The notes under the pieces: generated by a model
What the model was told of the DNA's origin: nothing
Seen by the model: only the letters and a program-made list of their open reading frames with translations
Database searches by the model: none
Assembly (NCBI RefSeq): GCF_009617975.1
Contig: NZ_CP040089.1
Span: forward strand, 450,001-482,000
Reading direction: 5' to 3'
Source of the DNA: Candidatus Nanohalobium constans
GTDB taxonomy: Archaea; Nanohalarchaeota; Nanosalinia; Nanosalinales; Nanosalinaceae
DNA length: 32,000 nt
Shown: piece by piece, positions 425-16,207 of the stretch
How positions within the stretch are numbered: position 1 is the stretch's first letter
How the letters are laid out: each line of letters starts with the position of its first letter
Translations under genes and position numbers: made by a program

Positions 425-1114
425 TTACTGGGTTGTGTTTGTTGTCTGGTTGTTTCCTGTCTGATTCTCAGGTTGCTGTTCTGCTTGTTGTGCTCTTTGA
501 ATCAGTTGGTCGATGTCATAGGCTACGTTCTGTGCGCCGAAAGGACTTCTTACCTGTTCTGGGAATAGAATCTTCCCGTCTGTAGTCAGGTAGAACATCT
601 GTGACTGTGTCTGCTGTGTACCGTTCACTGTCCTATCTACGGATGCATTAATGTAGTACATGTTGTTCTTAGGCTCTGCAGTCACTGAAATCTGATCTTC
701 TGGCTGTCCGCTTGCCACCAGGAAGTCTTCTACTTTCTCGGTTGCCTGTGTCTGGGAGATCTGGTCTCCTCCCATTGAAGGCATAAGCAAAGATCCTACA
801 AGAAGACCTGCTATAATTCCGAATAGTGCTCCTCCGCTGACAAGCTGTACGCGGTTGAAGCTTCCTAGAAGTCCTTCGCTTGTCTCTTCTTCGATTTCTT
901 CGACAAGTTCTTCTTCTACTTCTTCCTGTTCCTCTACTTCTTCATGGATTTCCTCTTCTACTTCTTCTCCAATCTTCTTTTCTAGGAATTCCTTTACGGT
1001 TTTACGGTCTTTGCCTTGCTCCTCTTCTTTGAGAAGTTCTTCATAGTTTACATCTGAGGCGTCTCGGATTTTTTCCTTGACCTCGTCAACAGTTCCATCT
1101 AGATAATCTGCCAT
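425..1114 (-). CDS. Hypothetical single-pass membrane protein: acidic N-terminal region, one TM segment, Q/N/T-rich C-terminal tail
   Basis: Long ORF with halophile-like acidic composition and one hydrophobic segment (LVSGGALFGIIAGLLVGSLLM). The track start at 1135 is TTG; the in-frame ATG at 1114 (MADYLDG...) is more likely. No family recognised. Confidence 0.55.
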   Translation of the reverse strand: MADYLDGTVDEVKEKIRDASDVNYEELLKEEEQGKDRKTVKEFLEKKIGEEVEEEIHEEVEEQEEVEEELVEEIEEETSEGLLGSFNRVQLVSGGALFGIIAGLLVGSLLMPSMGGDQISQTQATEKVEDFLVASGQPEDQISVTAEPKNNMYYINASVDRTVNGTQQTQSQMFYLTTDGKILFPEQVRSPFGAQNVAYDIDQLIQRAQQAEQQPENQTGNNQTTNTTQ

Positions 1115-1210
1115 ATATGCATAAATTCTGTCCAAGCAGGCTTATAAAATATTTACACTGTCCGCCCTCTTTCCCAACCTATAAAACCTGCCGCAGACTC
1201 ACTCACAACT

Positions 1211-2197
1211 ATGACAGTAGAAAAAGTCGCCTGGTTTGACACAGAAAACTGGGAGAAAGAATACCTTGAGAACAAGGATTTCCCCTTTGAGATAAAATTC
1301 TTTGAGGAAAGCTTAACCAAGGATACAGCAGCCAAGACAGAAGGTTTTGATGCAGTATCCGTCTTTGTTTCTTCCCAGGTCAGCTCTGAAGTAATTGAGG
1401 AGTTAGATGTCGATATAATCGCTTGTAGGTCTACAGGATTCGATCATGTCGACATTGAAACAGCCTCAGAACAAGGCATCAAAATATGCAATGTCCCAAG
1501 ATATGGTGCTAATACGGTAGCAGAACACGCATTCGGTTTAATCCTAACACTTTCCAGGAGGATTCACGAGGCGATTAGTAAGGTAGAGAACGGTGAGTTT
1601 GACCATCAAGGGCTGAAGGGTTTTGATCTTGAGGGGAAAACGCTGGGAGTTGTAGGGACGGGCAGTATAGGTCAGAAAGTTATCGAAATGGCACACGGAT
1701 TTAACATGGATGTCCTAGCATCTGACCCATACCCCAAAGAGGGCTTGGAAGAAGAGCTAGGCTTCATGTATGTCTCGATGGAAGACTTGATCAAAAAGTC
1801 TGATATAATAACTATTCACTGTCCTTTAACTGATGAAAACCACCACTTATTCTCTGAGGAACAGTTCAAGCTAATGGATGAAACTGTTCTGATTAATACG
1901 GCTCGTGGAGAGTTAGTAGATACAACTGCGCTGATAAGAGCATTGGAAAACGGGAATGTTTCCCGGGCAGGACTTGATGTACTGGAAGAGGAATGTGTTA
2001 TAGAGGAAGACATTGAGATCCTGGGTGATATCAGTGATGAATGCGACCCACAGAAGATAGTGGAAGATCATATCTTGATGGAGCGGGATGATGTAGTAGT
2101 GACTCCTCATAACGCTTTCAACAGTAGAGAAGCACTTCAGAGGATAGAAGATAAAACTCTAGAGAATATCGAAAAAGGAAGAAATACGGTGAACTGA
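1211..2197 (+). CDS. D-isomer-specific 2-hydroxyacid dehydrogenase (D-lactate dehydrogenase-like)
   Basis: NAD-binding GxGxxG (GVVGTGSIGQKV), a catalytic-domain layout collinear with LdhA-type enzymes (RSTGFDHVD, NVPRYGANTVAEHAFGL, INTARGELVD, VTPHNAF), 328 aa. Confidence 0.85.
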   Translation: MTVEKVAWFDTENWEKEYLENKDFPFEIKFFEESLTKDTAAKTEGFDAVSVFVSSQVSSEVIEELDVDIIACRSTGFDHVDIETASEQGIKICNVPRYGANTVAEHAFGLILTLSRRIHEAISKVENGEFDHQGLKGFDLEGKTLGVVGTGSIGQKVIEMAHGFNMDVLASDPYPKEGLEEELGFMYVSMEDLIKKSDIITIHCPLTDENHHLFSEEQFKLMDETVLINTARGELVDTTALIRALENGNVSRAGLDVLEEECVIEEDIEILGDISDECDPQKIVEDHILMERDDVVVTPHNAFNSREALQRIEDKTLENIEKGRNTVN

Positions 2198-2201
2198 TCT
2201 T

Positions 2202-3332
2202 TTACCAGTGCTCTTCGATTAGTGCTGAGGAGAAAAGTATCAGCATTGAGAACACTACTATTTCTATCCATATACCTCTGTAGATGACTGAGGCGAAGAG
2301 TAGGGGTACTATGACGATGCTTTCTATTATCAGGAATTTGATGAATGTTCCTGTCTGGTAGAATCGGATATTTGGCTTCAACTTAGTCAGTTTCTCAACT
2401 ACCACCAAGCTGTACATAGTAGTGGTATAGCCGATTAACAGAGCCAAGAAAAGGTCACCAGGATAGAACAGGTAGGCCACAAGAATCAATAATGTGGTTA
2501 AAGGCAAGGTTAGGATTGTGTAGGCCTTTTTCTTTGAATCCACAAGACTTCTGTACTTGACAGGCAGGTAGTCGTAGTCTTTCAACGAGTCAAAACGATT
2601 AATCCAGTTGTAGACGCTGAGATTGGCGATTCCTACGACGACGCTGAATGAAAGCAGAGGATTCCGCAGAAATGCATTAGCGATGGGGAAGAAGAACACG
2701 AAATACCAGTAGAAGAATGTCAGTAAACCCAGGGAAAAAATAATCTTCAAGAAACCGCCGGTCGACCGTGAAACATCGATGAATGCCTTGTTAGTGAGAG
2801 AATCAATCGGGAGATCCATTTCTGGTTTCAAGATTCTAGGTCGAGTGAAATGACTGATTGAAAGGCTTAGAGCTGCTGCTAAGCTGAAGAAACCCATCAT
2901 TTCCGGAAGAGAATAGATCACAGGGAGGTGGAAAACTGCGAAACCTGCTGTCACAGGCAAGGTAAGTATCAAGCTGTAATACAGTATGTCTTTTATCAGG
3001 AATGCCGCGCCTAATTTCCGCCCACTCAACGGAAGTGTTTGGGATGTATATACGAGATACTCGGTCTGACCTAATACATTTTGGAAAGCGTCTCTGCCGT
3101 AGAAACCGATAGTGCCTGCTGCCAGACCGAACATTCCACCTAAGGCAAGAAGTCCTGCATCCAGGATTTCAGGATTGAGTGTGGAATAATTAACTGTGAA
3201 GTATGAGAATGCTGCGGCAAAAATGAAAACCAGTACAGGGAAAAGTGCAAAGCTGTGACCTCTGTAAATCCGGGAGTGGCTTCTCCATTCTTCAACCATC
3301 ATCATCCATACAATCTTCAAGAACTGTTTCAT
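2202..3332 (-). CDS. Polytopic membrane protein, putative permease partner of the adjacent ABC ATPase
   Basis: About 10 hydrophobic segments. Its ATG overlaps the upstream ATPase stop in ATGA (3329..3332), which implies translational coupling. Confidence 0.6.
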   Translation of the reverse strand: MKQFLKIVWMMMVEEWRSHSRIYRGHSFALFPVLVFIFAAAFSYFTVNYSTLNPEILDAGLLALGGMFGLAAGTIGFYGRDAFQNVLGQTEYLVYTSQTLPLSGRKLGAAFLIKDILYYSLILTLPVTAGFAVFHLPVIYSLPEMMGFFSLAAALSLSISHFTRPRILKPEMDLPIDSLTNKAFIDVSRSTGGFLKIIFSLGLLTFFYWYFVFFFPIANAFLRNPLLSFSVVVGIANLSVYNWINRFDSLKDYDYLPVKYRSLVDSKKKAYTILTLPLTTLLILVAYLFYPGDLFLALLIGYTTTMYSLVVVEKLTKLKPNIRFYQTGTFIKFLIIESIVIVPLLFASVIYRGIWIEIVVFSMLILFSSALIEEHW

Positions 3333-4006
3333 TGTGACTCAAAGAACTTTTCTCGAAGGTTTTCCACTTCCGTTACCTCCTCAACAATCTCGCCATCATC
3401 CATGAAAAATACTCTATCACACAACTCCTCAGCTAGTTCAACGACATGAGTGCACATGAAAACAGTACCGCCATCGTCCCGATGCTCCTGGAATATTTTC
3501 TTAGCCTCTTCCTGGATAAAAGGATCTAAATTAATCAACGGTTCGTCGATAAATACGATTTCAGGTTCGTGGAAGAAAGACTGGGCAATCATCAGTTTCT
3601 GGCGCTCACCTTTCGACAAATCATGCGTAATTTTATTCAAGTCTCCGCCCAGGTTCAACCTTTGAACCCATTTACTATCAACAAACTCTTCACCGCGGAT
3701 ATCGCTGCAGAAATCCATGAACTCTTTCCCAGTCAAAAAGCTTGGTGGATCCTCTCGTTCAGGCAGAATACCTATATCCTCTCTCAGTTTAACTCCTTCC
3801 TTATCAGGGTCTTTACCAAGAACTCTGACTTCGCCAGAATCACGATTCATCTGGCCGGACAGAACCTTAATCAATGTGGATTTTCCTGCCCCGTTAGGAC
3901 CTAGAACACCAATAATCTCTCCTTCATCAACTTTGAAAGAAACATCTCGAAGAGCATCCACATCATCAAATTCTTTGGACAAGTTATCTGCCCTGATAAC
4001 ACTCAT
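3329..4006 (-). CDS. ABC transporter ATP-binding protein
   Basis: Walker A GPNGAGKST, ABC signature LSKGERQKL, Walker B IVFIDEPLINLD, H-loop CTHV. The track start (GTG at 4030) is probably too long; ATG at 4006 gives MSVIRADNLSKEF. Confidence 0.9.
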   Translation of the reverse strand: MSVIRADNLSKEFDDVDALRDVSFKVDEGEIIGVLGPNGAGKSTLIKVLSGQMNRDSGEVRVLGKDPDKEGVKLREDIGILPEREDPPSFLTGKEFMDFCSDIRGEEFVDSKWVQRLNLGGDLNKITHDLSKGERQKLMIAQSFFHEPEIVFIDEPLINLDPFIQEEAKKIFQEHRDDGGTVFMCTHVVELAEELCDRVFFMDDGEIVEEVTEVENLREKFFESQ

Positions 4007-4094
4007 ACACAGATATTTCTCAGACCCCACTTATTGATGTTTCCCCTTCGATGTACCTGGTTTAATAGTCTTCCACTGCTAAAAAACAGGTATT

Positions 4095-5219
4095 GTGAAA
4101 CAGGAAATCACGGTAGACGGAAAAGAGATCACCGTAGTCGGGACAGCACATGTATCGGAAGAAAGCCGCAGAGAAGTAAGACAGACAATAGAAGAGGTTC
4201 AGCCCGACCTTGTGGGAATAGAACTGGATGAGGATAGGCTAAACTCTTTGAGGGAAGACTCAGGATGGAAAGACTTAGACCTATCGGAAGCTATCAAGGA
4301 AGGTAAAGCACCTTTACTGCTTGTAAATCTTTTTCTCTCAATATACCAACGACATCTTGGAATACAAGAAGGAACGAAACCAGGACAGGAAATGCTGGAA
4401 GCAGTAGAGGCTGCAGAAGAAAACAGTATCGAATACTCGTTGCTCGATAGAGACATAAATGAGACACTTAGCAGAGCATTCTCACAACTAACAATCTGGG
4501 AGAAAATAAAGCTTACAGGCTCCATATTCGCAGGAAAAGAAGAGATGAATGTAGAGGAACTAAAAGAGGGTGATATGCTGGACGGAATAGTATCAGAACT
4601 TGAAAAACAACTCCCATCACTCAACAAAGTCTTCCTGGAAGAAAGAAACACTTTCATGGCAGAGAAACTGATGGAACAGGATTTTGACCGAGCTGTAGTT
4701 GTAGTAGGAGCTGCACATGTCAAAGGAATGATAGAAGATATCGAAGAACAGAAAAAATACTCAATTCAAGACGGAAAAAGTATTTCATGGACGAAAATCA
4801 TAAGTTATGGAGTCCCTGCATTTATTATAGCAGGTCTAGGTTATGCATTCTATCAAATCGGTTTTTCAACCGGTGTTGATGCAACAGCGTTCTGGATACT
4901 GAGTAACGGGATTTTGGCTATGTTTGGAGCAATAATAGCTCGATCACATATCTCTACATGGATCACTTCATTTATTGCCGCACCTCTAACTTCTCTGGAT
5001 CCTGCTCTGGGTGCTGGAATGGTTGCCTCGTATGCGGAAGCCAAGTTCCACCCGCCAACAATAGAGGAAATGGAGGAAGTGACCAAGGTAGAGAACTATC
5101 GCAGTCTGTGGGATAATCAGGCGGGTCGAGTACTTTTGACATTTTTCTTCGTAACTCTAGGTAGCGCAGCCGCAACATTCCTGTCAGCTGGCTTCATCGC
5201 CTCACTGATCGGACTTTAA
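4095..5219 (+). CDS. TraB/PrgY/GumN-family protein with C-terminal transmembrane region
   Basis: N-terminal ITVVGTAHVSEESRREV...PDLVGIELDEDR and a second VVVVGAAHV motif typical of TraB-family proteins. Hydrophobic C-terminal third. GTG start. Confidence 0.75.
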   Translation: MKQEITVDGKEITVVGTAHVSEESRREVRQTIEEVQPDLVGIELDEDRLNSLREDSGWKDLDLSEAIKEGKAPLLLVNLFLSIYQRHLGIQEGTKPGQEMLEAVEAAEENSIEYSLLDRDINETLSRAFSQLTIWEKIKLTGSIFAGKEEMNVEELKEGDMLDGIVSELEKQLPSLNKVFLEERNTFMAEKLMEQDFDRAVVVVGAAHVKGMIEDIEEQKKYSIQDGKSISWTKIISYGVPAFIIAGLGYAFYQIGFSTGVDATAFWILSNGILAMFGAIIARSHISTWITSFIAAPLTSLDPALGAGMVASYAEAKFHPPTIEEMEEVTKVENYRSLWDNQAGRVLLTFFFVTLGSAAATFLSAGFIASLIGL

Positions 5220-5244
5220 AACACTGAGAAAACAACTAATAGCC

Positions 5245-5625
5245 ATGAACGAAGAAGTCGGCAAGCACAAAGGCGCAATCGAAACACTGATGCACGAAAA
5301 GAAAGAACTATCAAGACTACTTCAAATCGTCAACTCACAGCTAGAAAGACACCTAAATGCATTAGACGAAGCAGGAGTAGATACAGACCAGTTCGTCCAA
5401 CAGATCCAACAACAAGGACAACAACAGCAGCAAAACAGCGGTCAGAGACAAAATACGCAGAGACAGCAAAACAGCCAAGCCAACCAACGCCAAAAACAAA
5501 ACCAGAGCAACTCCAGAAACAACAGGAATCAAGGAAGAAACCAGCAATCAAACAGAAACCAAAACTCAAGAACACAGAACAATACTGAGGAAGAATCCGA
5601 AGACCAAGACTTCAATCCGCTCTAG
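5245..5625 (+). CDS. Small protein with N-terminal coiled-coil-like segment and a Q/N/R-rich low-complexity domain
   Basis: ATG start, 126 aa. About 70 residues are almost only Q, N, R, S (QQIQQQGQQQQQNSGQRQNTQRQQNSQANQRQKQNQSNSRNNRNQGRNQQSNRNQNSRTQNN), followed by an acidic tail. Its stop shares the palindrome CTAG with the convergent rhomboid gene. Confidence 0.55.
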   Translation: MNEEVGKHKGAIETLMHEKKELSRLLQIVNSQLERHLNALDEAGVDTDQFVQQIQQQGQQQQQNSGQRQNTQRQQNSQANQRQKQNQSNSRNNRNQGRNQQSNRNQNSRTQNNTEEESEDQDFNPL

Positions 5626-6254
5626 TCTATCATCCATTTTTCTTCCCAATCCCTGATTTTCTGTTTCCAGGAATCTTCTAATTCAGTGTTGTCGCTGTTT
5701 TTTTCTTTGCCGTATTTTTTGTCTCTGAGTTGGATGCCGATTATGCTTCCTGCTAGTACTCCTAGTAGGTGTGCTTCGTTGGCTACATTGGTTGCTGCTG
5801 TTAGACCGGATAGGTCGATAAGTATGTAGGAAAGTAGTACTGCCCACATGGGTAGTGGTACTCCAAGCCCTAAGCCGATTTGGTTTGGGCGGTAGGCTGC
5901 TAGTGCTGCCATTACTCCCATTCCTCCGGCTGATGCTCCGATTATAAACGAGTTTGGGTAGAATATGAATGCTGTCAAATTCCCGGCTAATGCGGAAATT
6001 AGGAAAGTAGTTAGGAATGTTTTTGATGATGTCCATTTTTCGTAGATTGAGCCGAAGAGTGCTATGAAGAACAGGTTGTTTGTCAGGTGTTCTATTCCGG
6101 AGTGACCGATTATTGATGTGAAGAACTTCCAGAAGGGTTCACCTGGTTTGAAACCGGGGTTAAATCCGGAGAATGTTTGGATGGTGTAGACTGCTACTAG
6201 TAGGCTGCACAGCTTTAATGCAGTGTAATTAAATCCTGTTTTCTGTTTTTCCAC
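5622..6254 (-). CDS. Rhomboid-family intramembrane serine protease
   Basis: HSGIEHLTNNL (H...H...N), GASAGGMG (GxSxG catalytic Ser) and EAHLLGVLAG (catalytic His) set in a 6-TM-like hydrophobic pattern. GTG start. Confidence 0.8.
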   Translation of the reverse strand: MEKQKTGFNYTALKLCSLLVAVYTIQTFSGFNPGFKPGEPFWKFFTSIIGHSGIEHLTNNLFFIALFGSIYEKWTSSKTFLTTFLISALAGNLTAFIFYPNSFIIGASAGGMGVMAALAAYRPNQIGLGLGVPLPMWAVLLSYILIDLSGLTAATNVANEAHLLGVLAGSIIGIQLRDKKYGKEKNSDNTELEDSWKQKIRDWEEKWMID

Positions 6255-6334
6255 AGATAGGTTTAGTTTGGTCCAGTTTTTTAGCAGTTCGCAAATAGAA
6301 GAAAAAGGTAAGGGAATAAAGGAGGAGTTTGTTT

Positions 6335-7291
6335 TTATCCTGTGATCTGGTTGACTATTATGACTTCTGCGTGTCTTCCGTTGTAACCTGGTTCAAGTCT
6401 GATTGTTCCGTCAGAGTCTTCGCTGCTGTTAAAGTCTTCTACATTGCTTACAGGAGTGTTTCGGTTCTCCCATTTTTCTATGTATCCCAGTGTCTCTACT
6501 TTGTCTGCGTCAGGTCCTGAGATTGTTTCCTGGCTGTAGGAGTAAGTCTGGTTAAGTCGGAGATCGTGGAACTCTGCGCATTCCGCATCGAGATATCCAT
6601 CTCCCTCTCTCAGCTCTTCGCTCGTCCCTACAAGGTCTGCAACCTGATTGATTGGAGTGTCAAATGTGATTGTCTCCGCATCATTATACGGAATACTTGT
6701 TTCTACGCTGAAAGTTGTGTCAACAGTTTCACCTGTGATAACTTCCCCGTTCTGATTTAGGAGAATCTTACAGACCTTGATAGATCCTTCACGATGAATA
6801 TCCTGATCATGCTTGTAGTGGTCTCGTGGATTAGGATAGCTAAGATAGTCCTCACCTACATGACTTGGTTCAGGTGCAGGAGTTACAGTACGCTCCTCAA
6901 CAACCGTCCCATCATCTTCTGATCCATCAGACTCATCTCCTTCATCAGACTCCCCGGACTCATCGCCGTCCTCAGGAGTTTCTGAATCCTCACTGTCCTC
7001 ACTTCCATCATACTCATCTGAGTTACACGGACTGTCCACACCGATAACACATACGCCCACATCACTTTCAGAATCACTATCATCACCGTTCTCAGGGGTC
7101 TCAGAATCGTCGCCATCTTCACTGAAGAAATTATCGTCATCAAACGAAATATCTATACTAGAACCCTCCGAGAAAAAAGAATCCCCGGAACCCTCATCGA
7201 AAAAATCGTCTTCGAAAAAACTCTCAGAGCCTGAAGCCGCACCAAGCCCCACCGTAACCATAACCGCCGCAATCAACGCTATTGTTTTCAT
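6335..7291 (-). CDS. Secreted or anchored hyperacidic protein with D/E/S-rich repeats and a C-terminal globular domain
   Basis: Signal-peptide-like MKTIALIAAVMVTVGLGAASG from ATG 7291 (the track start 7315 is GTG). Repeated DSETPE(D/N)GD(E/D)S units. The last ~170 aa are not low complexity. Confidence 0.6.
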   Translation of the reverse strand: MKTIALIAAVMVTVGLGAASGSESFFEDDFFDEGSGDSFFSEGSSIDISFDDDNFFSEDGDDSETPENGDDSDSESDVGVCVIGVDSPCNSDEYDGSEDSEDSETPEDGDESGESDEGDESDGSEDDGTVVEERTVTPAPEPSHVGEDYLSYPNPRDHYKHDQDIHREGSIKVCKILLNQNGEVITGETVDTTFSVETSIPYNDAETITFDTPINQVADLVGTSEELREGDGYLDAECAEFHDLRLNQTYSYSQETISGPDADKVETLGYIEKWENRNTPVSNVEDFNSSEDSDGTIRLEPGYNGRHAEVIIVNQITG

Positions 7292-7610
7292 ACCATACAA
7301 GAGACACTCAACCACTCAAAAACACTTAGACACTCCAAAACAATCACAGAAACATTGCATAAACAAAGATATGTGCTCTCCCCCAAGACAAGCAAAAGAA
7401 TTAAAACAGTAGCATCCAACAGGTCATTCATGACTGGTGAATATGTTCCTCAACTTTCAGCATTCTAGAGGGAGTTTTCTTAGTCGCCGGTCTATTGAAT
7501 TCTATGTGATTTCTATGACACAAGACTCAACTACGGGTGGACGCGTTCCACTTATGGAAATTATCTAAACTGGTTCAAAACCTTTCAAAAACGGTTTCTG
7601 GTGAAATTGG

Positions 7611-8813
7611 ATGAGACGCAGTGATTTGTTCGCCACTGTATCCAAAGAGTCTGTCTCAGATGCTGACTGCCGTAGCGAAGAGTTGGCGATTAAAGCAGGT
7701 CTGATTCACAGTTACGGCTCAGGAACCTTTGGATACACTCATCTCGGGAAGAAAGTGCTCGATAACATTGAAGAAGTAATTAGAGATGAGATAGATGAGG
7801 TAGCTCAAGAAGTCAGAATGAATCTCCTGCAGACCTCTAAACTATGGAAAGAAAGTGGTCGGTGGAAAGACTTCGAGGGGGAAGAGTTCTTCCACTTCAA
7901 AAACAGAGATGACAAGGATTTCTGTCTAGCAGCAACACATGAAGAAGCAGTGGTTGGAATGGCTCGAAAGTTTGTAAGAAGCTACAGAGATCTCGACTTC
8001 ACAGTTTATCAGATTGGTCGTAAGTTCCGTGATGACCATGCTAGGAAAGGACTTCTAAGGGCTAAAGAATTCACGATGAAGGATGCCTACAGCTTCCACA
8101 GAAATGAAGACAAACTTGATAGGAAATTTGAAGAGATGATGGAAGTCTACCGCAGAATCTTTGACAGAATAGGACTTGAGTACTCTGTGGTAGGTGCTGA
8201 TAACGGCTCAATGGGTGGAGATACCTCAAGGGAGTTCATCGCCGAGGCAGAGGTCGGTAGCGACACCTACATGAAATGCAGAGGCTGTGAGTTTGGCACT
8301 AAAAACCTAGAGGCTTCAGAATGCCGTGAATGCGGATCTGAACTAGAAAAAGTAAATGGCATTGAGGTTGGTCACTGCTTCAAACTTGGCACTAGATACA
8401 GCAGCTCAATGAACTTAGACTTCACTACTGAGGAAGGAGAGAACAAATCGGTGGTCATGGGCTGTTACGGCATCGGAGTTTCCCGCCTGATTTCAGCTAT
8501 TATCGAACAAAGCAACGATGATCAAGGGATAACCTGGAACCGGGAAGTTGCAGCATTTGACACAGCAGTAGTCCTCGCTAGCGAAGAAGAAAAAGCCTGT
8601 AACAAGGCGGAGAAAATTTATCAGGACCTAAGTGAGGAAGAGGAAATTCTTCTCTACGAGGGAGAAATGTCGATCGGTGAGAAATTTGCCGAAGCAGATC
8701 TGATAGGAGTGAACAGGAAAGTTATCGTCGGCAACAATTTTCTCGAGAATGGAGTTATCGAAGTAGAAGATAGAACAGGTCATACCGAACTCGTCAAGGA
8801 GGTGGCAAAATAA
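7611..8813 (+). CDS. proS: Prolyl-tRNA synthetase, bacterial-type architecture, lacking the INS editing domain
   Basis: Collinear with bacterial ProRS: MRRSDLF..SKE...DA, ESGRW, ATHEE, YQIGRKFRDD..ARKGLLRAKEFTMKDAYSFH (motif 2 region), GIEVGHCFKLGTRYS, MGCYGIGVSRLISAIIEQ (motif 3), and a C-terminal anticodon-binding domain. It is only 400 aa: about 40 residues with a CxxC...CxxC sit where the ~180-aa INS domain normally lies. Confidence 0.9.
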   Translation: MRRSDLFATVSKESVSDADCRSEELAIKAGLIHSYGSGTFGYTHLGKKVLDNIEEVIRDEIDEVAQEVRMNLLQTSKLWKESGRWKDFEGEEFFHFKNRDDKDFCLAATHEEAVVGMARKFVRSYRDLDFTVYQIGRKFRDDHARKGLLRAKEFTMKDAYSFHRNEDKLDRKFEEMMEVYRRIFDRIGLEYSVVGADNGSMGGDTSREFIAEAEVGSDTYMKCRGCEFGTKNLEASECRECGSELEKVNGIEVGHCFKLGTRYSSSMNLDFTTEEGENKSVVMGCYGIGVSRLISAIIEQSNDDQGITWNREVAAFDTAVVLASEEEKACNKAEKIYQDLSEEEEILLYEGEMSIGEKFAEADLIGVNRKVIVGNNFLENGVIEVEDRTGHTELVKEVAK

Positions 8814-8843
8814 ATCTACCTCCTTTAACCTCTCCCGTAAAAT

Positions 8844-8916
8844 GGCGGGATGGTGTAGTGGACTATCATTGGCCGTTTGGGACGGCCAGACCCCGGTTCA
8901 AATCCAGATCCTGCCA
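8844..8916 (+). tRNA. tRNA-Pro (anticodon UGG), 73 nt, no encoded CCA; T-stem has two C-A mismatches
   Basis: Manual fold. Acceptor GGCGGGA/TCCTGCC has 7 bp including one G-U. D-arm GTGT/TCAT with GG in the loop. Anticodon stem GGCCG/CGGCC with loop TTTGGGA. T-loop TTCAAAT. Discriminator A. T-stem CCCGG/CCAGA pairs at only 3 of 5 positions. Confidence 0.65.
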
Positions 8917-9098
8917 GCCTATTAGCCGTGCAAATCCTTCTTTTGCCGTGTTTTTTCCCGTTCCTTCCTTCGATTGTATAGGTTTCATCAGAAATATGCT
9001 TAAAGATTTTTAAAAAGATGTTCCGCTTATTTGCCGCCATATTTGGACTGTATAAGCAGTTTTTCTGGGTTTAGAATGCTCCTCTGGGAAATGAGAAA

Positions 9099-9392
9099 TC
9101 AGACCCGTGCCTTGATTCTTTGTATCGACTTCTGTGTGTAGGCATCGTCGCGGTGTTCGACACCAAGAACCACGACCTTCCTGCCGTCAAGCTTGAAGAA
9201 AACTCTGTGGTCCAGCTCGTCGTCCTTGAGCTTCAATCGAAAGATCTCCAGACCCTGCTTGCTCATAAGAGAGGTATTCTCACCGAGAGGGCTTTCCCTC
9301 AATTCCTCCATCTTGGTCCGTATCTGTCTCTGAACCTGTTCATCCATTTCCTTCAGGTCCTCGACAGCACCGTCCCGTACTTCGAGTTTCAT
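9099..9392 (-). CDS. RelE/ParE-family type II toxin
   Basis: 97 aa. C-terminal pattern IFRLKLKDDELDHRVFFKLDGRKVVVLGVEHRDDAY matches the RelE/ParE fold signature (R.R.G.yR..y......v.vl.v.hR..aY). Its ATG overlaps the upstream gene's stop (ATGA at 9389..9392). Confidence 0.75.
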   Translation of the reverse strand: MKLEVRDGAVEDLKEMDEQVQRQIRTKMEELRESPLGENTSLMSKQGLEIFRLKLKDDELDHRVFFKLDGRKVVVLGVEHRDDAYTQKSIQRIKARV

Positions 9393-9637
9393 TCAGACAA
9401 CCCAAGCTCCTCGTCCAACTCTTCCAGCGTGTAACCATCTGACTCGCCTTCCTCGTACTCTCTCAACCGTCTCCGTAGCTTCTCCGCTATCTCTGGCCGC
9501 AGTACAAGATCTTCTTCGACCTTGTCACGGAGTGCTTCACGGACATACTCAGAGGTACTGTTGTAGTTTTTCCTCTCAGCTACGGCTTCGATCTCGTTTT
9601 TCTGGTTATCTGGAAGTTTGATCGTCAACGATGCCAC
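9389..9637 (-). CDS. Ribbon-helix-helix (CopG-like) antitoxin
   Basis: 82 aa. N-terminal beta-strand plus helices (SLTIKLPDNQKNEIEAVAE...SEYVREALRDK) typical of RHH antitoxins. Acidic C-terminal tail. GTG start. AT-rich TATA-like aaaattttaaaaatg lies about 35-45 nt upstream. Confidence 0.7.
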   Translation of the reverse strand: MASLTIKLPDNQKNEIEAVAERKNYNSTSEYVREALRDKVEEDLVLRPEIAEKLRRRLREYEEGESDGYTLEELDEELGLSE

Positions 9638-9749
9638 CGTAATATCACCATAGTCATACTATAGTAAGAAAATTTTAAAAATGTATTTCGTCCCGGAAAA
9701 TCGTGTTGAACTCATATAGTTTGATCTCACTGTGATTGTCCGAGAAAGA

Positions 9750-9840
9750 GGTGGGGGTCAGTCACGGCTTCGGTTGGGTGTCGACCACGCCGGTTCGATT
9801 GGTAGCCAGTGAACGGTTGATTCAGTGGCGGGTCCTGCCA
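9750..9840. other. GC-rich, hairpin-rich non-coding island of unknown function (possible small RNA or tRNA-derived remnant)
   Basis: Visibly GC-rich against the AT-rich flanks. It contains a cUUCGg-type hairpin (CGGC-TTCG-GTTG, 9765..9776), a T-loop-like GCCGGTTCGATTGG, an 8-bp imperfect hairpin CCAGTGAA/TTCAGTGG, and ends in TGGCGGGTCCTGCCA (9826..9840). I could not fold it as a canonical tRNA on either strand. Confidence 0.3.
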
Positions 9841-9887
9841 ATTACATATTCCCACATTTCATAGGGAGTCAGGTTCCTGTTATCCTA

Positions 9888-11489
9888 CTATGTAGCTTGT
9901 CGTAGGATTTCTGCAGTATCTTCTGATCCTATCGAAAGAATTAGTCGGGAAAGTCTCGGACCGCTTTCTCTACCTAGCATAACTTTGTACATTGCATCGA
10001 AGAACTCTCCTGTTCCAAGCTCTGATTCTTCCTTTACATCAAAGATTTTACCATCTAAGTCGTCTTGATCTGTCCAGTCCTCTGTTTCCAGCATTTCTGC
10101 CAACAGCTTTGCTGCTTCTCTTTCTTCTTCGCTAAGTTTTTCCTTTATCTCTTCTGATACTTCGTAGTTTATCTCGTAGACATATTCTTCGGGAGCGTAG
10201 TCTCTTGCCCAGTTCTTGGCTCTTTCTAATCTTTCTAAAGTTCTCTGTTTGTCTTCTTCGGAGATTTCTTCCGGCAGGTGACCGGTTCTTCGAAGTGATT
10301 CGAAACCTTTACTCTCCCACTTTTCCTCTGGTACTGTCTGTGCGATGAAAGATGCCTGTTTGAACGGAACTCGGACAGGCTCTTCATCCGGTATTTCTAC
10401 CATCGCTATTTCGTATACGCGTTTCCTGTGCTTTCTTTCTCTGTCGTTGTCGAGCTCGTCCGGGTTGAAGTACTGGTGTTCTATCTTGTCGAATTTCTCG
10501 TATCTCTGGAATATTTCCTCATCCTCGAAAGGTATCTCGAATGCCTTGTTTGGCTTTGTGTTGGAGAACAGGAATCGTATCATTTCCGGGCTGTAGACTT
10601 TCTTCAACTCTGTAATCGTGAATACATCTTCTCCAGAACTCGAGGAAATCTTTCCGCCGTCTTTTGTCACGAATTCGTACATCTGGTGGACTGGTGGTTC
10701 TTTGTCGAATATTTTCTCCGCTAGCTCGTTCCCTGTGTCTCTGCTTCCTCCTGATGCAGAGTGTTCTTTCCCTGCTGGTTCAAAGTCGACTCCTTCATAT
10801 TTCCAGCGCATAGGCCAGTCTACACGCCATGGAAGTTTGACAGAAGGATGTTCTTTGAAGTTCAACTCTAGATCTTCTCCACATTCATCGCAGTGGTATT
10901 CTACAGTGTATTCGCCGTCGTAGTCCGTTACTTCTGTATAGTCTTTGCCGCATTCTTTGCAGTAGACTCTTAGTGGGAAGTATGGTTCTTCGAGTGGTTC
11001 TTTCCTGTATTTGTCGAGTATTTGTTTGATTTCTTCCCTGTTCTGCATTGCATGTTTGATTTGTTCTGTGTAGTCGCCGTTCTTGAATTTCTTGCTTTGC
11101 CTGATGAATTCTATGTCCATGTGCATGCCTTCCAGTTCTTCCTCTAGTCGGGCTTCGAAGTGGTCGGCGTAGCTGTCGTGGCATCCTTCCGGGTCAGGCA
11201 CTTCCACAAGCGGAAGTCCAAGATACTGCTCCCATTCATCAGGTACATTGGAAGGAACCTTTCTGAAACGGTCGTAATCATCCCAGGAATAGATAAATCG
11301 AACATCTTCGCCCCTATTCTTCAAAGACTTGACAACAAAGTCGGTTGTAATTATCTCCCGGAAATTTCCAGCATGTACAAGGCCTGAAGGACTGATCCCT
11401 GATGCGCAGACATATGTGTCTTGGTCTGGGAATTTGCGTGTTACTCCGAAGGCCAGTTGATCTGACCAAAACAGCGGCTGTTCACTCAT
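9888..11489 (-). CDS. lysK: Lysyl-tRNA synthetase, class I
   Basis: 533 aa. ASGISPSGLVHAGNFRE (HIGH-type motif of class I LysRS), KISSSSGE (KMSKS-type), an internal Cys cluster (CKECG...CDECG), and the WRVDWPMRW block characteristic of LysK. Confidence 0.92.
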   Translation of the reverse strand: MSEQPLFWSDQLAFGVTRKFPDQDTYVCASGISPSGLVHAGNFREIITTDFVVKSLKNRGEDVRFIYSWDDYDRFRKVPSNVPDEWEQYLGLPLVEVPDPEGCHDSYADHFEARLEEELEGMHMDIEFIRQSKKFKNGDYTEQIKHAMQNREEIKQILDKYRKEPLEEPYFPLRVYCKECGKDYTEVTDYDGEYTVEYHCDECGEDLELNFKEHPSVKLPWRVDWPMRWKYEGVDFEPAGKEHSASGGSRDTGNELAEKIFDKEPPVHQMYEFVTKDGGKISSSSGEDVFTITELKKVYSPEMIRFLFSNTKPNKAFEIPFEDEEIFQRYEKFDKIEHQYFNPDELDNDRERKHRKRVYEIAMVEIPDEEPVRVPFKQASFIAQTVPEEKWESKGFESLRRTGHLPEEISEEDKQRTLERLERAKNWARDYAPEEYVYEINYEVSEEIKEKLSEEEREAAKLLAEMLETEDWTDQDDLDGKIFDVKEESELGTGEFFDAMYKVMLGRESGPRLSRLILSIGSEDTAEILRQAT

Positions 11490-11516
11490 CTTATCTCCCC
11501 GCTGTTTTTGGTTTCA

Positions 11517-11535
11517 GAAATTTCTTGGAAATTTC
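11517..11535. promoter_or_regulatory. Tandem 8-bp palindromes GAAATTTC-TTG-GAAATTTC upstream of lysK
   Basis: Exact duplicate of the self-complementary octamer, 28-46 nt upstream of the lysK ATG (11489), inside the lysK/M50 divergent intergenic region. Candidate operator; function unproven. Confidence 0.3.
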
Positions 11536-11649
11536 GGGTCCAGAATAGGGGTTGATCTGTCATAGGGATTGTTATTTATGCGAATTTTTTATAGTACCTG
11601 AGCTGGTTTGTATGAGGGTTTTTAACTTAGAGTCTTCGGTGTTTTGTGT

Positions 11650-12837
11650 ATGGATACTGCGACTTTGAGATTCGGTTTTCTTTTGGGTATGGTTGGTTTG
11701 ATTTTTGCACTTTTGTGGCGTGATCGGGAGAATGTTGAACGCTCTGGAATTCTTTTCTATCGGAGGACGAAGAATGGTTTGGATCTTATTGACCGGGTTG
11801 CTAAGAGGTTTCCTCGTTTCTGGAAGGTTTATTCTTGGGGCGGGGTTTTGGCTGCGGCTGTGTCTGTGCCGTTGATTTTTTACTCCATTTATGAACTTGT
11901 TTTGAAGGTTGTGCGGACGGGTCAGCCAGCCGAGGGTGCTGGAGTGGTTTATCCTTCTACCGGGAGCACTATTTCTCAGAGTGCAGGTGCTATCGGTGTG
12001 CCTGCTGAGTACTGGTTTATTTCGATTGGAATACTAATGGTTGTCCATGAGTTGAGTCATGGTGTTATTGCGAGGGCTCAGGACTTCGATATTAATTCTG
12101 TAGGTGTCTTGGTGCTTGGAGTTATTCCGGGTGCTTTTGTTGAGCCGAAGGGTAGTGGTTTGCCTGGTGATGATGGAGGTGATGAGGCTAAGCCTCACGG
12201 TGCCTGGGATCAGGGAGACTGGATTTCCCGTGTCAAGGTTTTGGCGGCTGGAAGCTGGGCGAACTATCTTACTGCTGGTTTGTTCCTGGTACTGGCTTTA
12301 GGTTTTACTTCAGCAACCTCTAATCCCGCGGGAATTGTTTATCAGGCTCAGGATGACTTTCCTGCTGGTGAAGCCGGTATGACGAACGGTACTCTTCAGG
12401 CTGTCGGAAATCAGACTGTGGCTGATATTTCGGATATCAAGGCTGCTACCGAGGGTTTGCAGTCAGGTGATTCGTTAGAATTGGTTACTACTGAGGGAAA
12501 CTTTTCTGTCACAGCTACTTCGAAGGAAGGATTTGATGGAGGTTATCTGGGGCTTCAGTTCCTAAGTGTTGATAGAGAGTACAAGGATGGTCTGAAATCT
12601 TTCAGCGGGTTTTTGTCCTGGTTCGGAGGCTTACTGAATATTGTGGCGTTTCTGAACCTGGGTATTGGAATGTTTAACATGTTCCCTGCTAAGCCGCTTG
12701 ATGGGGGTCATATCTTGGATGCAGTTATTGAACGGTTTGCTGGTGAGGAGTATACTCAGTATGTGAATGCCTGGTCAGGAGCAGTTCTTTTGCTGTTGGT
12801 TGGTGTTATAGTTTACAGCATCATCGGTCCGTTCTAG
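11650..12837 (+). CDS. M50-family site-2 protease (RseP/S2P-like zinc metalloprotease) with a PDZ-like insert
   Basis: HELSHGVIA (HExxH in a TM segment) and NLGIGMFNMFPAKPLDGGH (NxxPxxxLDG motif), with multiple TM segments. The track start at 11644 is TTG; ATG at 11650 is preferred. Confidence 0.85.
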   Translation: MDTATLRFGFLLGMVGLIFALLWRDRENVERSGILFYRRTKNGLDLIDRVAKRFPRFWKVYSWGGVLAAAVSVPLIFYSIYELVLKVVRTGQPAEGAGVVYPSTGSTISQSAGAIGVPAEYWFISIGILMVVHELSHGVIARAQDFDINSVGVLVLGVIPGAFVEPKGSGLPGDDGGDEAKPHGAWDQGDWISRVKVLAAGSWANYLTAGLFLVLALGFTSATSNPAGIVYQAQDDFPAGEAGMTNGTLQAVGNQTVADISDIKAATEGLQSGDSLELVTTEGNFSVTATSKEGFDGGYLGLQFLSVDREYKDGLKSFSGFLSWFGGLLNIVAFLNLGIGMFNMFPAKPLDGGHILDAVIERFAGEEYTQYVNAWSGAVLLLLVGVIVYSIIGPF

Positions 12838-12881
12838 GATTTCCATTCCTTTCTTAATTTTTCATTTCCACTTTCTTTTCT

Positions 12882-13187
12882 ATGACTCATAAAATTGAAG
12901 TCGTTGATAGGGACGAAGTAGTTGAGGCTGAGGACGGACAAGATATACTTCAGGCTCTGCTGCATGGCGGTGTTGAATGGATGCATGCCTGTGGTGGTTT
13001 CTGCAACTGTACTACTTGTCGTGTCAAGGTGGAAGAGGGTATGGAGAATCTTAGTGAGATGCAGGAGGATGAGAAGAATACTCTGCGGCGTTTCCAGGGA
13101 GAAGAAGTCTTGGAAGGTCCTTTCCGATTGAGTTGTCAGGCTGATGTTCACGGCGATATCAAGATTTCGGAGCCGGAGTGGTACTGA
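12882..13187 (+). CDS. fdx: [2Fe-2S] ferredoxin
   Basis: 101 aa, acidic. Cluster-binding ACGGFCNCTTCRV (C-x4-C-x2-C) plus the distal RLSCQ cysteine. Confidence 0.85.
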   Translation: MTHKIEVVDRDEVVEAEDGQDILQALLHGGVEWMHACGGFCNCTTCRVKVEEGMENLSEMQEDEKNTLRRFQGEEVLEGPFRLSCQADVHGDIKISEPEWY

Positions 13188-13189
13188 AT

Positions 13190-13585
13190 ATGAATCCTAG
13201 GAGTCATGCGGTAATTTCTCTTGTTCTCGGTCTTTTGCTTGGAGTTTTGAAGCAGGAGTTGTTTGTTGAGGTTGTCTTTGTGGCTTTTGTTTCCGGTACT
13301 TTGATTGATGTGGATCACTTTGTGGTTGGTCGTTTTGTGCATGGTGACTGGCGTTTTTTGAAGTCTACTTTCTCCAGTTTCTGGGCTTCGGTAACGGATG
13401 TTCAATCGGTTGTCGGTGAAGAGGAAGAGTTTGGACCACTTTACAGGATTTTCTCTCATTCAGTGATACTGATGATTTTGATGATTGCTGGTTTCTACAG
13501 TGATATTTTACTGATTGAGGTTGCCGCTGTTTCTACAGGAGTTCATCTGTTGTCTGATCTGTATGCGGATGTGTTTCTCTGGTAA
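13190..13585 (+). CDS. Small membrane protein, DUF457/YdjM-like metal-dependent hydrolase family (tentative)
   Basis: N-terminal PRSHAVISL and LIDVDHF motifs set in hydrophobic helices. ATG at 13190 lies just after the ferredoxin stop (the track start 13178 is GTG inside fdx). Confidence 0.55.
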   Translation: MNPRSHAVISLVLGLLLGVLKQELFVEVVFVAFVSGTLIDVDHFVVGRFVHGDWRFLKSTFSSFWASVTDVQSVVGEEEEFGPLYRIFSHSVILMILMIAGFYSDILLIEVAAVSTGVHLLSDLYADVFLW

Positions 13586-13624
13586 ATCCAAAGAATTAGA
13601 AGAATAAGAGAACAAGTATTTAAC

Positions 13625-13732
13625 ATGGTGGATTTTACATGCTGGAACTGTGGGTTGGAGATGCGTAAGCATGTTGCGTGTGAGTTGAAGTGCGATAACT
13701 GTGGTTTTATCCGTGATTGTTCTGATCCTTAG
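13625..13732 (+). CDS. 35-aa zinc-ribbon micro-protein (below the ORF-track length cut-off)
   Basis: ATG..TAG ORF: MVDFTCWNCGLEMRKHVACELKCDNCGFIRDCSDP, with CxxC-x9-C-x3-C-x2-C spacing. The overlapping 114-aa minus-strand track ORF lacks acidic composition or motifs. Confidence 0.45.
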   Translation: MVDFTCWNCGLEMRKHVACELKCDNCGFIRDCSDP

Positions 13733-13982
13733 TTCTGTAGACTCTTTGGTATGTATGTTTGTTACATAGGCCGAGCATTGTCTGGTTTTTGCATCCCTCT
13801 CTGCAGCATTCTCTAAACATCCTGTTTCTGACTTCTCCTTTATTTTAACCATTCATGCAGAAAACCATATATTATATAAAAGTTGTGGTAAATCACATTG
13901 GTGTAGCTATTAAGTGTAATGGTTTTTCGGGTTTGGACCGAAAACATTATAACTTTTTGTTATCTAATGGTGATAATATATT

Positions 13983-14165
13983 ATGGAAACAGTTGACTGC
14001 CCCTACTGTGGAGAAACCTTTGAAGGAGAAAGCGAAGCAGATGCTAGAACCAAGGAAGGTGTCCACAGAGCAGAGAATCATGTGAACAACAACGAGTCTA
14101 CAAAGAAGGCTTCCAAAGGAAGAAATATCGTCGATGAATGGAAGTCAGAAGGCAAAAGAGCCTAA
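13983..14165 (+). CDS. 60-aa small zinc-finger protein (CxxC...H...H)
   Basis: METVDCPYCGETFEGESEADARTKEGVHRAENH has C2H2-like spacing and a basic tail. An AT-rich TATA-like stretch (cattataactttttg) lies about 30 nt upstream. Confidence 0.55.
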   Translation: METVDCPYCGETFEGESEADARTKEGVHRAENHVNNNESTKKASKGRNIVDEWKSEGKRA

Positions 14166-14194
14166 CTGACTCGTTTTTCTAACACTAAACTTTC

Positions 14195-15133
14195 CTACTC
14201 TTTTTCTTTAACATCTACAGCCTTCTCCAACTGATTAGAACCTTTCCGAATAGTTACTTCAGTTACTCCAGCTGTCTCAGCAACTTCTCTTTGAGTCAGT
14301 TTTTCTCCCATCGATTTAGCTGCCATGTAGATTGCTGCTGCGGCTATACCGTCCGGGCTTCTACCGGATGTCAATCCTTTATCTCTTGCTTCAAGGATAA
14401 TTCTTCGGGCTTCTGCCTGAACTTCTCCAGAAACACTGAGCTCCGAGCAGTAGCGGGATACGAAGTCCTCTGCTCTTACTGGTTCTACATCGATATCAAG
14501 TTCTTTTGCCAGGTAACGGTAGTTTTTACCTAGTTCTCTCTCGGAGATCCCGGAAGCCTCGCTGAACTCTTTCAAAGTCCTAGGAACTCTCTGGTTCCTG
14601 GCTACAATAAATACTGAGGAAGCAGCTATCTTCTCGATTTTTCTTCCCTTGACAACTTCTTCATCGATGGCTTTGTCGTAAAGCCTTGCTGATTCCTCTT
14701 CTACTGAGTTAGGCAGGTTAAGCTGGTTGATTATATCTGAGATTTGATTCAATGCGGTCTTCAGGTTTCTTGACTTGGAGCCAGAGCTTCTGCTGTGCCA
14801 TTTCCTTAATCTGTAGTATTGTCCTCTTTTATCTGGAGATACGTTTCTCATGCTTCCGGATCCGATCTCCGTGGAGATGCCTTTGTCGTGTCTTGTGAAG
14901 GTTATCTTGCTTCCTGATCTCTCCTTATCTTTTCGGTCCTCTGCTGAGAAGGTTCTGGGTCCGGATGTATCAACTTTATCCTCTTCTACAACTGTTCCGC
15001 AGTCTCTGCAGAATAGTTCGCCGGTCGCACTGTCGCTTTCAAACTCTTTTGCGCCGCAGTTCGGGCATTGGAGTACTTCTGGTTTCTCAGTGTTTTCTTT
15101 AGTTTCGATCGTATCGGTGTTTTGGCTGTTCAT
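14195..15133 (-). CDS. tfb: Transcription initiation factor IIB (TFB)
   Basis: N-terminal zinc ribbon CPNCGAKEF...CRDCGTVVEE, a B-reader/linker, two cyclin-fold repeats (SVFIVARNQRVPRTLKEF; AAAAIYMAAKSMGEKLTQREVA), 312 aa. Confidence 0.93.
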   Translation of the reverse strand: MNSQNTDTIETKENTEKPEVLQCPNCGAKEFESDSATGELFCRDCGTVVEEDKVDTSGPRTFSAEDRKDKERSGSKITFTRHDKGISTEIGSGSMRNVSPDKRGQYYRLRKWHSRSSGSKSRNLKTALNQISDIINQLNLPNSVEEESARLYDKAIDEEVVKGRKIEKIAASSVFIVARNQRVPRTLKEFSEASGISERELGKNYRYLAKELDIDVEPVRAEDFVSRYCSELSVSGEVQAEARRIILEARDKGLTSGRSPDGIAAAAIYMAAKSMGEKLTQREVAETAGVTEVTIRKGSNQLEKAVDVKEKE

Positions 15134-15266
15134 AACTCATTAACATCAAGTAAATTACTTAAGGTTATCGGGTACTTCTGTGTAATCTTCTGTTCATTCA
15201 GGTCTTTTGTTGAATAGTGGTCGAGGCGGTGAAACATACTTTAAACTGGTTGTTGAAGACTGATTC

Positions 15267-15629
15267 ATGAACTTGGAGAACTTGATTCCTGATGATTATG
15301 GTCAACTTGAAAACTCTGACTTAGCTCTTTCCGAGGGACGAATCCGGCGCTTGATGCGGGAGAGAATGGACGACGATCAGACGCTTGACGGAGATGTACC
15401 GCATGTAATAAACTGTGTCCTGTCAGAGATGCTTGATGAGATTATTGATGAAACTATTGATGAAGCAGAGTATATGGCGAAGGTTAAGGAAAGCCATATG
15501 CGTGTTGCTTTGCGTAATGTTGAGATTAAGGAGGATTACAGTGCTCAGACCCGTGAATTTGTCGACCAATTGCGAAGTATCTCTGAACAGATGGAGAAAA
15601 CAGCTGAGAGAATAGAGGAGCAGGACTAA
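15267..15629 (+). CDS. Acidic 120-aa protein, possibly histone-fold-like
   Basis: ATG start with ctttaaac TATA-like element about 24 nt upstream (leaderless geometry). The segment GRIRRLMRE-(loop)-VPHVINCVLSEMLDEIIDETIDEAEYM-(AKVKESH)-MRVALRNVE has helix-loop-long helix-loop-helix lengths like an archaeal histone fold. Similarity was judged by eye only. Confidence 0.55.
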   Translation: MNLENLIPDDYGQLENSDLALSEGRIRRLMRERMDDDQTLDGDVPHVINCVLSEMLDEIIDETIDEAEYMAKVKESHMRVALRNVEIKEDYSAQTREFVDQLRSISEQMEKTAERIEEQD

Positions 15630-15689
15630 CTTGCTCCTAACTTTTTTATGAACAAATCAGCTTAGAATAGCTTAGGTGATCGAAATAAG

Positions 15690-15926
15690 ATGAAAGATGT
15701 TAATTACCTGGACTGGGCTTCGCTCGTCCTGATAATTGTCGGAGCAGTAAACTGGGGATTAGTCGGACTAGCAATGATCTCAGGTGCAGAGAGAAACGCA
15801 TACAATGTAGTCAATTTACTGCTGGGGCAGCTAGGACCGCAGTTTGAAGCAATTATTTACCTTCTCGTAGGACTATCTGGACTCTACCAGGTCTACTTCG
15901 GATACCAGCTGTATGAAGAACAGTAA
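15690..15926 (+). CDS. DUF378-family small membrane protein
   Basis: 78 aa. LDWASLVLIIVGAVNWGLVGL and IIYLLVGLSGLYQV match the two-TM DUF378 pattern (iGalNWGLvG). Confidence 0.75.
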   Translation: MKDVNYLDWASLVLIIVGAVNWGLVGLAMISGAERNAYNVVNLLLGQLGPQFEAIIYLLVGLSGLYQVYFGYQLYEEQ

Positions 15927-15950
15927 AAAAGGGAAAAAACACCTCCCTCC

Positions 15951-16169: not shown

Positions 16170-16207
16170 AACTAATCTATTTGGGCTACTGAATGAAAAA
16201 CCTTTAT

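Follow-up and report, generated by a model that had tools for sequence, protein, structure and literature searches.

A bacterial-type prolyl-tRNA synthetase lacking the INS editing domain, carried beside the archaeal enzyme in Candidatus Nanohalobium constans

Prolyl-tRNA synthetase (ProRS) shows one of the cleanest splits between a bacterial form (P-type) and an archaeal/eukaryal form (E-type), and reviews place the archaea on the E-type side. How, then, is a gene of the opposite type to be understood in an archaeon? The gene in question, which we call proS-b, lies in a 32,000-nucleotide stretch of Candidatus Nanohalobium constans (contig NZ_CP040089.1, positions 450,001 to 482,000 of the forward strand; hereafter the window). 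A first-pass annotation, made from the letters of the window, had described its product as a bacterial-type ProRS in which a small element with four cysteines (Cys4) takes the place of the INS editing domain. We examined what kind of enzyme proS-b encodes, whether it is likely to serve in translation, where it is found and why it might be retained. Its coordinates and those of the neighboring features are collected in Table 1.

The product of proS-b is a bacterial-type (P-type) ProRS without INS. Its best NCBIfam models are bacterial-type proS families; it scores above the cut-off of TIGR00409 (408.1 versus 306.7 bits) and far below that of the archaeal-type model TIGR00408 (103 versus 437 bits). 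In Pfam, tRNA-synt_2b covers residues 94 to 300 and HGTP_anticodon residues 320 to 391, and the protein ends with this anticodon-binding domain, with no further C-terminal extension. An assignment to the E-type was rejected, given the TIGR00408 score and the lack of a C-terminal zinc-binding extension. The alignment to the 567-residue chain of 5znj runs in two blocks, residues 1 to 237 matching 1 to 237 and residues 245 to 393 matching 399 to 548; since residues 238 to 398 of 5znj are skipped, about 160 residues, corresponding to INS, are missing from proS-b. Consistently, Pfam found no YbaK-like INS (PF04073) in the protein, and the distance from GG..S.EF to GIEVGH is 41 residues. The class II motifs and the columns of the proline and ATP sites are all invariant (38 and 26 homologs), among them R84, E111, E112, R140, R150, E153, F154, E208, F209, H255, G287, G289 and R292. 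An AlphaFold2 model built from 38 homologs (pLDDT 89.6, pTM 0.90) matches, in Foldseek, the ProRS of Enterococcus faecalis and Staphylococcus aureus (TMq 0.91 to 0.92) and the INS-less ProRS of Rhodopseudomonas palustris (TMq 0.92, TMt 0.84, 32% identity). The description of a collinear, 400-residue bacterial-type enzyme is therefore borne out, and that of an INS-less protein with C223-x2-C226 and C238-x2-C241 is correct in every detail, cysteine positions included.

Compared with the canonical P-type enzymes of E. faecalis (2J3L), S. aureus (5ZNJ) and Pseudomonas aeruginosa (5UCM), proS-b has a collinear core and anticodon-binding domain with motifs 1 to 3, and the similarity is high in both sequence (phmmer E-values of about 1e-84 to 1e-86) and predicted fold (TMq mostly about 0.9, ranging from 0.86 to 0.92 across chains). 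It differs from them in lacking INS (about 160 residues), in a shorter motif 2 loop without the RPR signature, and in belonging to an archaeal host with an acidic, halophilic proteome. The INS-truncated ProRS of Alphaproteobacteria (R. palustris 2I4L; NF008979) resembles proS-b in being P-type without a functional INS, but its insert measures 67 to 71 residues and carries two CxxC motifs at only 1 of 62 loci, whereas the insert of proS-b has 41 residues and Cys4. The two form separate lineages in a tree of 189 rows. A classification of proS-b as the NF008979 type was rejected on account of this Cys4 insert and a score of 369.5 bits, the cut-off being 550.

Is proS-b the only ProRS of its host? 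The genome is closed (973,463 bp) and also encodes a complete archaeal-type enzyme at C1:401130-402602, which scores above the TIGR00408 cut-off (558.9 bits); therefore, proS-b is a second, accessory ProRS that has not taken the place of the archaeal one. The label of a minimal ProRS given by the first-pass annotation fits as far as it means a P-type enzyme without INS, but it does not fit as the description of a sole ProRS. The archaeal-type gene was present in 38 of 41 nanohaloarchaeal relatives, 37 times above cut-off, and in all 23 high-quality Nanohaloarchaeota genomes. proS-b, on the other hand, occurs in 12 of 70 genomes of the phylum and is confined to one family (11 of 49 genomes, versus 0 of 20 in the four other families). 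Its presence is patchy even within genera (for example, 1/6, 1/5 and 2/3 genomes), it was not found in the six other single-contig genomes of our first sample, and one genome (G002) carries two copies. In the genomes that carry it, purifying selection on the gene is strong, the ratio of nonsynonymous to synonymous substitution rates (dN/dS) being 0.05 to 0.10 in the three unsaturated nanohaloarchaeal pairs. The host also has a free-standing YbaK-family gene, a 189-residue open reading frame (ORF) that reaches 84 bits, below cut-off, with the YbaK_EbsC model. A homolog of the ProXp-ala/YbaK family had been proposed as something to look for, and a YbaK-family gene does exist, but we rejected it as a specific partner of proS-b because it is nearly universal among the Nanohaloarchaeota, 66 of 70 genomes having such a gene.

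Relatives outside the Nanohaloarchaeota bear directly on function. Of 201 Halobacteria genomes sampled, 21 gave a short P-type ProRS in a search with a profile of the clade, and 18 of these 21 also hold an archaeal-type ProRS. In the other three (G070, G074 and G080; all 2.1 to 2.2 Mb, the first a metagenome-assembled genome of a Halodesulfurarchaeum sp.), no archaeal-type ProRS was found with TIGR00408 or with the archaeal ProRS of the window genome as query, and the matches of the archaeal query fall solely on the P-type gene. This pattern suggests that a short Cys4 P-type enzyme has completely replaced the archaeal ProRS in their lineage. Since it is the sole ProRS found in these three genomes, where all charging of proline would have to depend on it, the family should be able to charge archaeal tRNAPro.

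The motif 2 loop offers a candidate explanation of how it might do so. Archaeal tRNAPro carries C72, and C72 is found in all the tRNAPro genes seen here. Bacterial long forms and basal short forms have RDE-x-RPR-F-G (xRPRF) in this loop; throughout the halophilic-archaeal clade the loop is shorter by one residue and reads RDD-[HR][AP]R[KN]-G, with HARK in proS-b and HARN, RARK or HPRN elsewhere. In the P-type ProRS of Escherichia coli and Bacillus thuringiensis, recognition of G72 and A73 in bacterial tRNAPro falls to the first Arg of RPR (PMC11229370). We infer that the shortened loop is an adaptation to C72.

Given this architecture, conservation and distribution, proS-b is probably a working second ProRS of bacterial ancestry that lacks cis-editing. 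As a class II synthetase, it would activate proline with ATP, bind G35 and G36 of the anticodon through its C-terminal domain and transfer proline to archaeal tRNAPro (C72/A73), a step probably permitted by the remodeled motif 2 loop. Any clearance of mischarged tRNAPro would fall to the free-standing YbaK-family protein, which would also serve the archaeal ProRS. The gene is accessory in this host, spreading horizontally within the Nanohaloarchaeota while purifying selection keeps it beside the universal archaeal ProRS.

Several observations weigh against this conclusion. The score of proS-b is below cut-off not only for NF008979/PRK12325, as given above, but also for PRK09194 (439.6 versus 558 bits), in the latter case because the INS columns are empty. 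Several homologs are named just "aminoacyl-tRNA ligase-related protein" by NCBI, and RPR, the acceptor-stem reader of bacterial ProRS, is absent. Most relatives do without the gene; in G003 it is reduced to an internally deleted remnant, and in G015 it consists of a split copy and a fragment. No RNA sequencing run was listed as containing window positions 7400 to 9000. Finally, the three Halobacteria genomes with a sole P-type ProRS come without completeness figures.

We next consider the Cys4 element, which the first-pass annotation had taken for an insert standing in place of INS. The four cysteines (residues 223, 226, 238 and 241; codons at 8277, 8286, 8322 and 8331, spanning nucleotides 8277 to 8333) follow the pattern C-x2(-4)-C-x11-13-C-x2-C and are conserved in essentially all of about 80 nanohaloarchaeal homologs and in the Halobacteria relatives, except that in one subclade the fourth is His, giving C..H at the second knuckle. 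The lack of conservation that the first-pass annotation had named as a possible refutation is therefore not seen. Residues 211 to 250 are predicted to form short beta hairpins (pLDDT 91 to 96 in the AlphaFold2 model), with strands at 218 to 223 and 228 to 230 followed by a long strand at 244 to 260 that continues into the catalytic core. Pfam places a weak Zn_ribbon_15 match at residues 215 to 247 (16.3 bits; cut-off, 28.9). proS-b thus combines two conserved CxxC knuckles with predicted beta hairpins, as expected of a zinc ribbon, and the zinc-ribbon-like structure suspected for residues 215 to 250 is supported by the model. The element is a putative zinc-binding site.

Its origin, however, appears to be other than a replacement. 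We inspected 107 INS-bearing relatives gathered in two protein searches, a set biased to the nearest relatives of the query and so not a measure of frequency across all bacteria. A CxxC lies within 32 residues before INS in 76 of them, within 25 residues after INS in 78, and on both sides in 74, and INS-bearing and short forms do not differ in the distance that separates the second CxxC from GIEVGH. Many uncharacterized long relatives therefore share the four Cys positions around INS, although the solved canonical enzymes are themselves without these cysteines. Because a CxxC pair flanks INS in 74 of 107 long relatives, we read Cys4 as a retained stalk and not as a replacement module: on sequence evidence, the supposed mini-insert is the zinc-ribbon stalk that bears INS in long forms, kept after INS was lost. 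In this process, about 150 residues between the two knuckles would have been removed and the ribbon retained, so that a putative structural zinc ribbon would close the gap above the active site.

This loss does not look like a single event. In the 189-row tree, in which a few rows were misparsed, short Cys4 forms are scattered among long forms, with about 15 state changes; the short form was found in Omnitrophota, Elusimicrobiota, Planctomycetia and Rickettsiaceae. Such scatter points to many independent losses of INS in bacteria. A zinc ribbon flanking INS in many bacterial ProRS is apparently undescribed, and it would explain why the editing domain has been lost so cleanly and so repeatedly. 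We found no literature description of one, which is weak evidence, as subscription journals were outside the search.

To evaluate how proS-b came to its present hosts, we built a tree of 70 rows with IQ-TREE (PMSF, quick search), with bacterial long forms as outgroup. The short forms group in one clade of 58 rows (support of 97), within which the halophilic-archaeal Cys4 sequences form a clade of 50 rows, also with support of 97. This clade comprises a Nanohaloarchaeota group of 25 rows (support of 96), joined by one long-branched metagenomic sister, and a Halobacteria-associated group of 24 rows (support of 93). The two groups are reciprocally monophyletic; therefore, proS-b was not picked up recently from a host. 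Within the Nanohaloarchaeota, the gene tree conflicts with the taxonomy: the window allele joins genus g21 and not G002, its congener, which falls with genera g17 and g2 instead. This discordance indicates transfer within the phylum. The low TIGR00408 score is at odds with membership of the archaeal-type clade, and the earlier suggestion of an acquired or lineage-restricted enzyme agrees with this clade and its patchy spread. Overall, the observation in the first-pass annotation is confirmed and its interpretation partly supported.

No vehicle of transfer was evident: neither an integrase nor a viral gene was found among the Pfam-scanned ORFs (window positions 425 to 20035) or around the corresponding tRNA in G001. 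Viral contigs, huge phage contigs among them, have only distant ProRS genes (34 to 42% identity). In IMG/VR, phage contigs of 480 to 520 kb (L128 to L130) encode short ProRS homologs of 34 to 39% identity that are unrelated to the halophilic clade.

Why would a genome of about 1 Mb, in which redundancy is costly, hold ProRS of both types? By analogy with synthetase paralogs gained laterally elsewhere, proS-b would most likely serve as a condition-specific or inhibitor-insensitive back-up. We consider an isoenzyme of this kind the most economical explanation because of the precedent in B. thuringiensis, the existence of resistant paralogs acquired by horizontal gene transfer (HGT) and the patchy, mobile distribution of the gene. 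B. thuringiensis carries a P-type ProRS1 and an E-type ProRS2, that is, both architectures in one genome, one of them laterally acquired; the immigrant was fitted to the tRNAPro type of its host and its motif 2 loop was remodeled (PMC11229370). The two enzymes differ in stress tolerance, and the halofuginone tolerance of the E-type copy exceeds that of a typical E-type enzyme (PMC11229370). More generally, natural toxins target ProRS, and resistant synthetase paralogs have been acquired by HGT (PMC5388404). The present case is the mirror image: in an archaeal host with a native E-type enzyme, the immigrant is of the P-type and lacks INS. A further likeness is LeuRS2 of Halobacteria, a bacterial-type synthetase paralog that is fixed in halophilic archaea beside or instead of the archaeal enzyme (cited in PMC9437257 and PMC3436685), although it belongs to another synthetase class and family.

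A P-type ProRS is thus established in two archaeal lineages and has apparently replaced the E-type in a few Halobacteria. We found no literature description of P-type ProRS in archaea (Nanohaloarchaea or Halobacteria), which again counts as weak evidence because subscription journals were not covered. A review from 2022 lists ProRSx as the sole ProRS duplication and includes no archaeal one (PMC9437257). The halophilic clade provides a natural setting in which to ask how the acceptor-stem reading of a synthetase is re-adapted from G72 to C72 and why two isoenzymes are kept. A broader account, which we advance tentatively and find doubtful as a whole, would see an editing-free P-type ProRS moving among halophilic archaea, both DPANN symbionts and Halobacteria that include their hosts, as a conditional replacement of the E-type, for instance by being insensitive to inhibitors specific to E-type ProRS or by serving as an isoenzyme under stress. 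Under this account, it would have fully displaced the native enzyme in one haloarchaeal lineage, and Cys4 would be the ancestral docking platform of INS, from which the domain was excised precisely, independently and many times.

Other explanations have to be weighed against that of a working second ProRS. The one that survives best, though still unlikely, is that proS-b is a neutral or nearly neutral passenger of HGT, redundant, of no benefit, entering and leaving genomes by drift and heading for loss. This would agree with its presence in 12 of 70 genomes and its absence from the six single-contig genomes, with the remnant in G003 and the split copy in G015, and with the position of the window copy beside an insertion hot spot, where a tRNA-Pro gene has been broken by a toxin-antitoxin cassette. 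Yet the dN/dS values are low, the catalytic motifs are all intact across a deep clade of 57 to 80% identity, and reciprocal monophyly with the Halobacteria clade marks that of the Nanohaloarchaeota as old; moreover, useless genes of 1.2 kb are rarely kept in genomes of about 1 Mb. We regard as very unlikely that proS-b is a synthetase-like enzyme with a role outside translation, either supplying prolyl-adenylate to another acceptor or acting as a regulator. Several aminoacyl-tRNA synthetase paralogs do act in such ways, some homologs bear the ligase-related label, and an accessory gene with its editing domain gone and its motif 2 loop altered might be a candidate. Nevertheless, the anticodon-binding domain is complete and conserved, the family provides the sole ProRS found in three Halobacteria genomes, and linkage to tRNA-Pro and proS genes also speaks for a role in translation.

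This linkage emerged from the neighborhoods of 14 nanohaloarchaeal and 11 Halobacteria genome loci. A tRNA-Pro gene lies directly downstream of proS-b, on the same strand and 30 to 115 nt away, at 5 of the 14 loci, which belong to two genera: the window (UGG), both copies of G002 (CGG), G003 (GGG) and, in another genus, G067 (CGG). In G022 and G058, the gene directly downstream is the archaeal proS. A proline-decoding partner thus follows immediately at 7 of 14 loci, far more often than expected of random placement in a 1-Mb genome. The order in G023 is rhomboid gene, proS-b and lysyl-tRNA synthetase (LysRS) gene, with no tRNA. No tRNA was found near the P-type gene at any of the eleven Halobacteria loci scanned, and conserved neighbors in Halobacteria were not found beyond close relatives, the clustering being dominated by spurious high-GC ORFs. 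The linkage may reflect co-regulation or recombination at tRNA-Pro genes.

Table 1. Coordinates of proS-b, its elements and the downstream features in the window
Feature	Position	Strand	Basis or remark
proS-b, P-type prolyl-tRNA synthetase without INS editing domain, 400 aa	7611..8813	+	Intact ORF, ATG start
Motif 2 loop, F139-R150, FRDDHARKGLLR	8025..8060	+	Without RPR signature; shorter by one residue than the bacterial loop
Cys4 zinc-ribbon-like element, residues 215-247	8253..8351	+	At the exact INS insertion site of long forms
HGTP-type anticodon-binding domain, C-terminal, residues 320-391	8568..8783	+	PF03129, E = 4e-11; aligns to bacterial ProRS 399-548
tRNA-Pro(UGG), G1:C72, A73	8844..8916	+	ARAGORN; 30 nt 3' of the proS-b stop
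ParE-type toxin	9099-9392	-	Pfam
RHH antitoxin	9389-9637	-	Pfam
Displaced native 3' end of tRNA-Pro(UGG), CGGGTCCTGCCAA	9829..9841	+	Identical over all 13 nt to the intact copy (its positions 63-75)

The tRNA-Pro(UGG) gene adjoining proS-b has an unusual T-stem with two C-A mismatches. The Rfam tRNA model, in permissive mode, gives it 40.0 bits versus 52.6 bits for an otherwise identical copy; at the gathering threshold, neither tRNA-Pro(UGG) locus gave a match. The odd stem arises because an insertion of about 0.9 kb, which carries the ParE/RHH toxin-antitoxin pair, breaks the gene in the T-arm and provides a surrogate 3' end (CCAGA-TCCTGCC-A). The boundaries of the insertion were taken from the displaced 3' end of the tRNA and from G001, where the same tRNA is unbroken and is followed directly by the flank found behind the remnant in the window.

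The arrangement recalls ProRSx/tRNAProA of Streptomyces, in which a second ProRS gene adjoins a tRNA gene and the paralog has co-evolved with its own tRNA (PMC9437257). That proS-b and its adjacent tRNA-Pro likewise form a dedicated pair, for altered decoding or a single isoacceptor, is highly improbable, however close the two genes lie at five loci of two genera and however unusual the T-stem of the window copy: the reading is largely refuted by the anticodons of the adjacent tRNAs, which are ordinary Pro anticodons (UGG, CGG and GGG in different genomes) on normal acceptor stems with archaeal G1:C72/A73 ends, the adjacent tRNA of G003 is identical to the ordinary GGG tRNA of the window genome, half of the loci, all eleven scanned in Halobacteria among them, lack a nearby tRNA, and the cassette accounts for the T-stem.

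Elsewhere in the window genome, a second and perfect copy of tRNA-Pro(UGG) lies outside the window at C1:601717-601791 on the minus strand (L029), 143 kb away and inverted. The perfect and the interrupted copy share their first 62 nt, and a 13-nt repeat of the tRNA 5' end occurs at 601927-601939, 136 nt upstream of the perfect one. A tRNA-Pro(CGG) was not found in this genome, for which ARAGORN reports 18 tRNA genes without introns and 41 calls when introns are allowed, some of these introns being implausibly long. Upstream, between the rhomboid gene and proS-b, a gene at 6335-7315 (minus strand) encodes an extremely acidic protein of 326 residues, rich in Asp, Glu and Ser, that has a hydrophobic segment at its N terminus and matches nothing in Pfam; at the syntenic position in G003 it is missing. 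Downstream, within 11 kb of proS-b, lie genes for a class I LysRS (9888-11489, minus strand) and a class II synthetase of the Asp/Asn type (18596-20035, minus strand), so that three synthetase genes share one 12-kb stretch.

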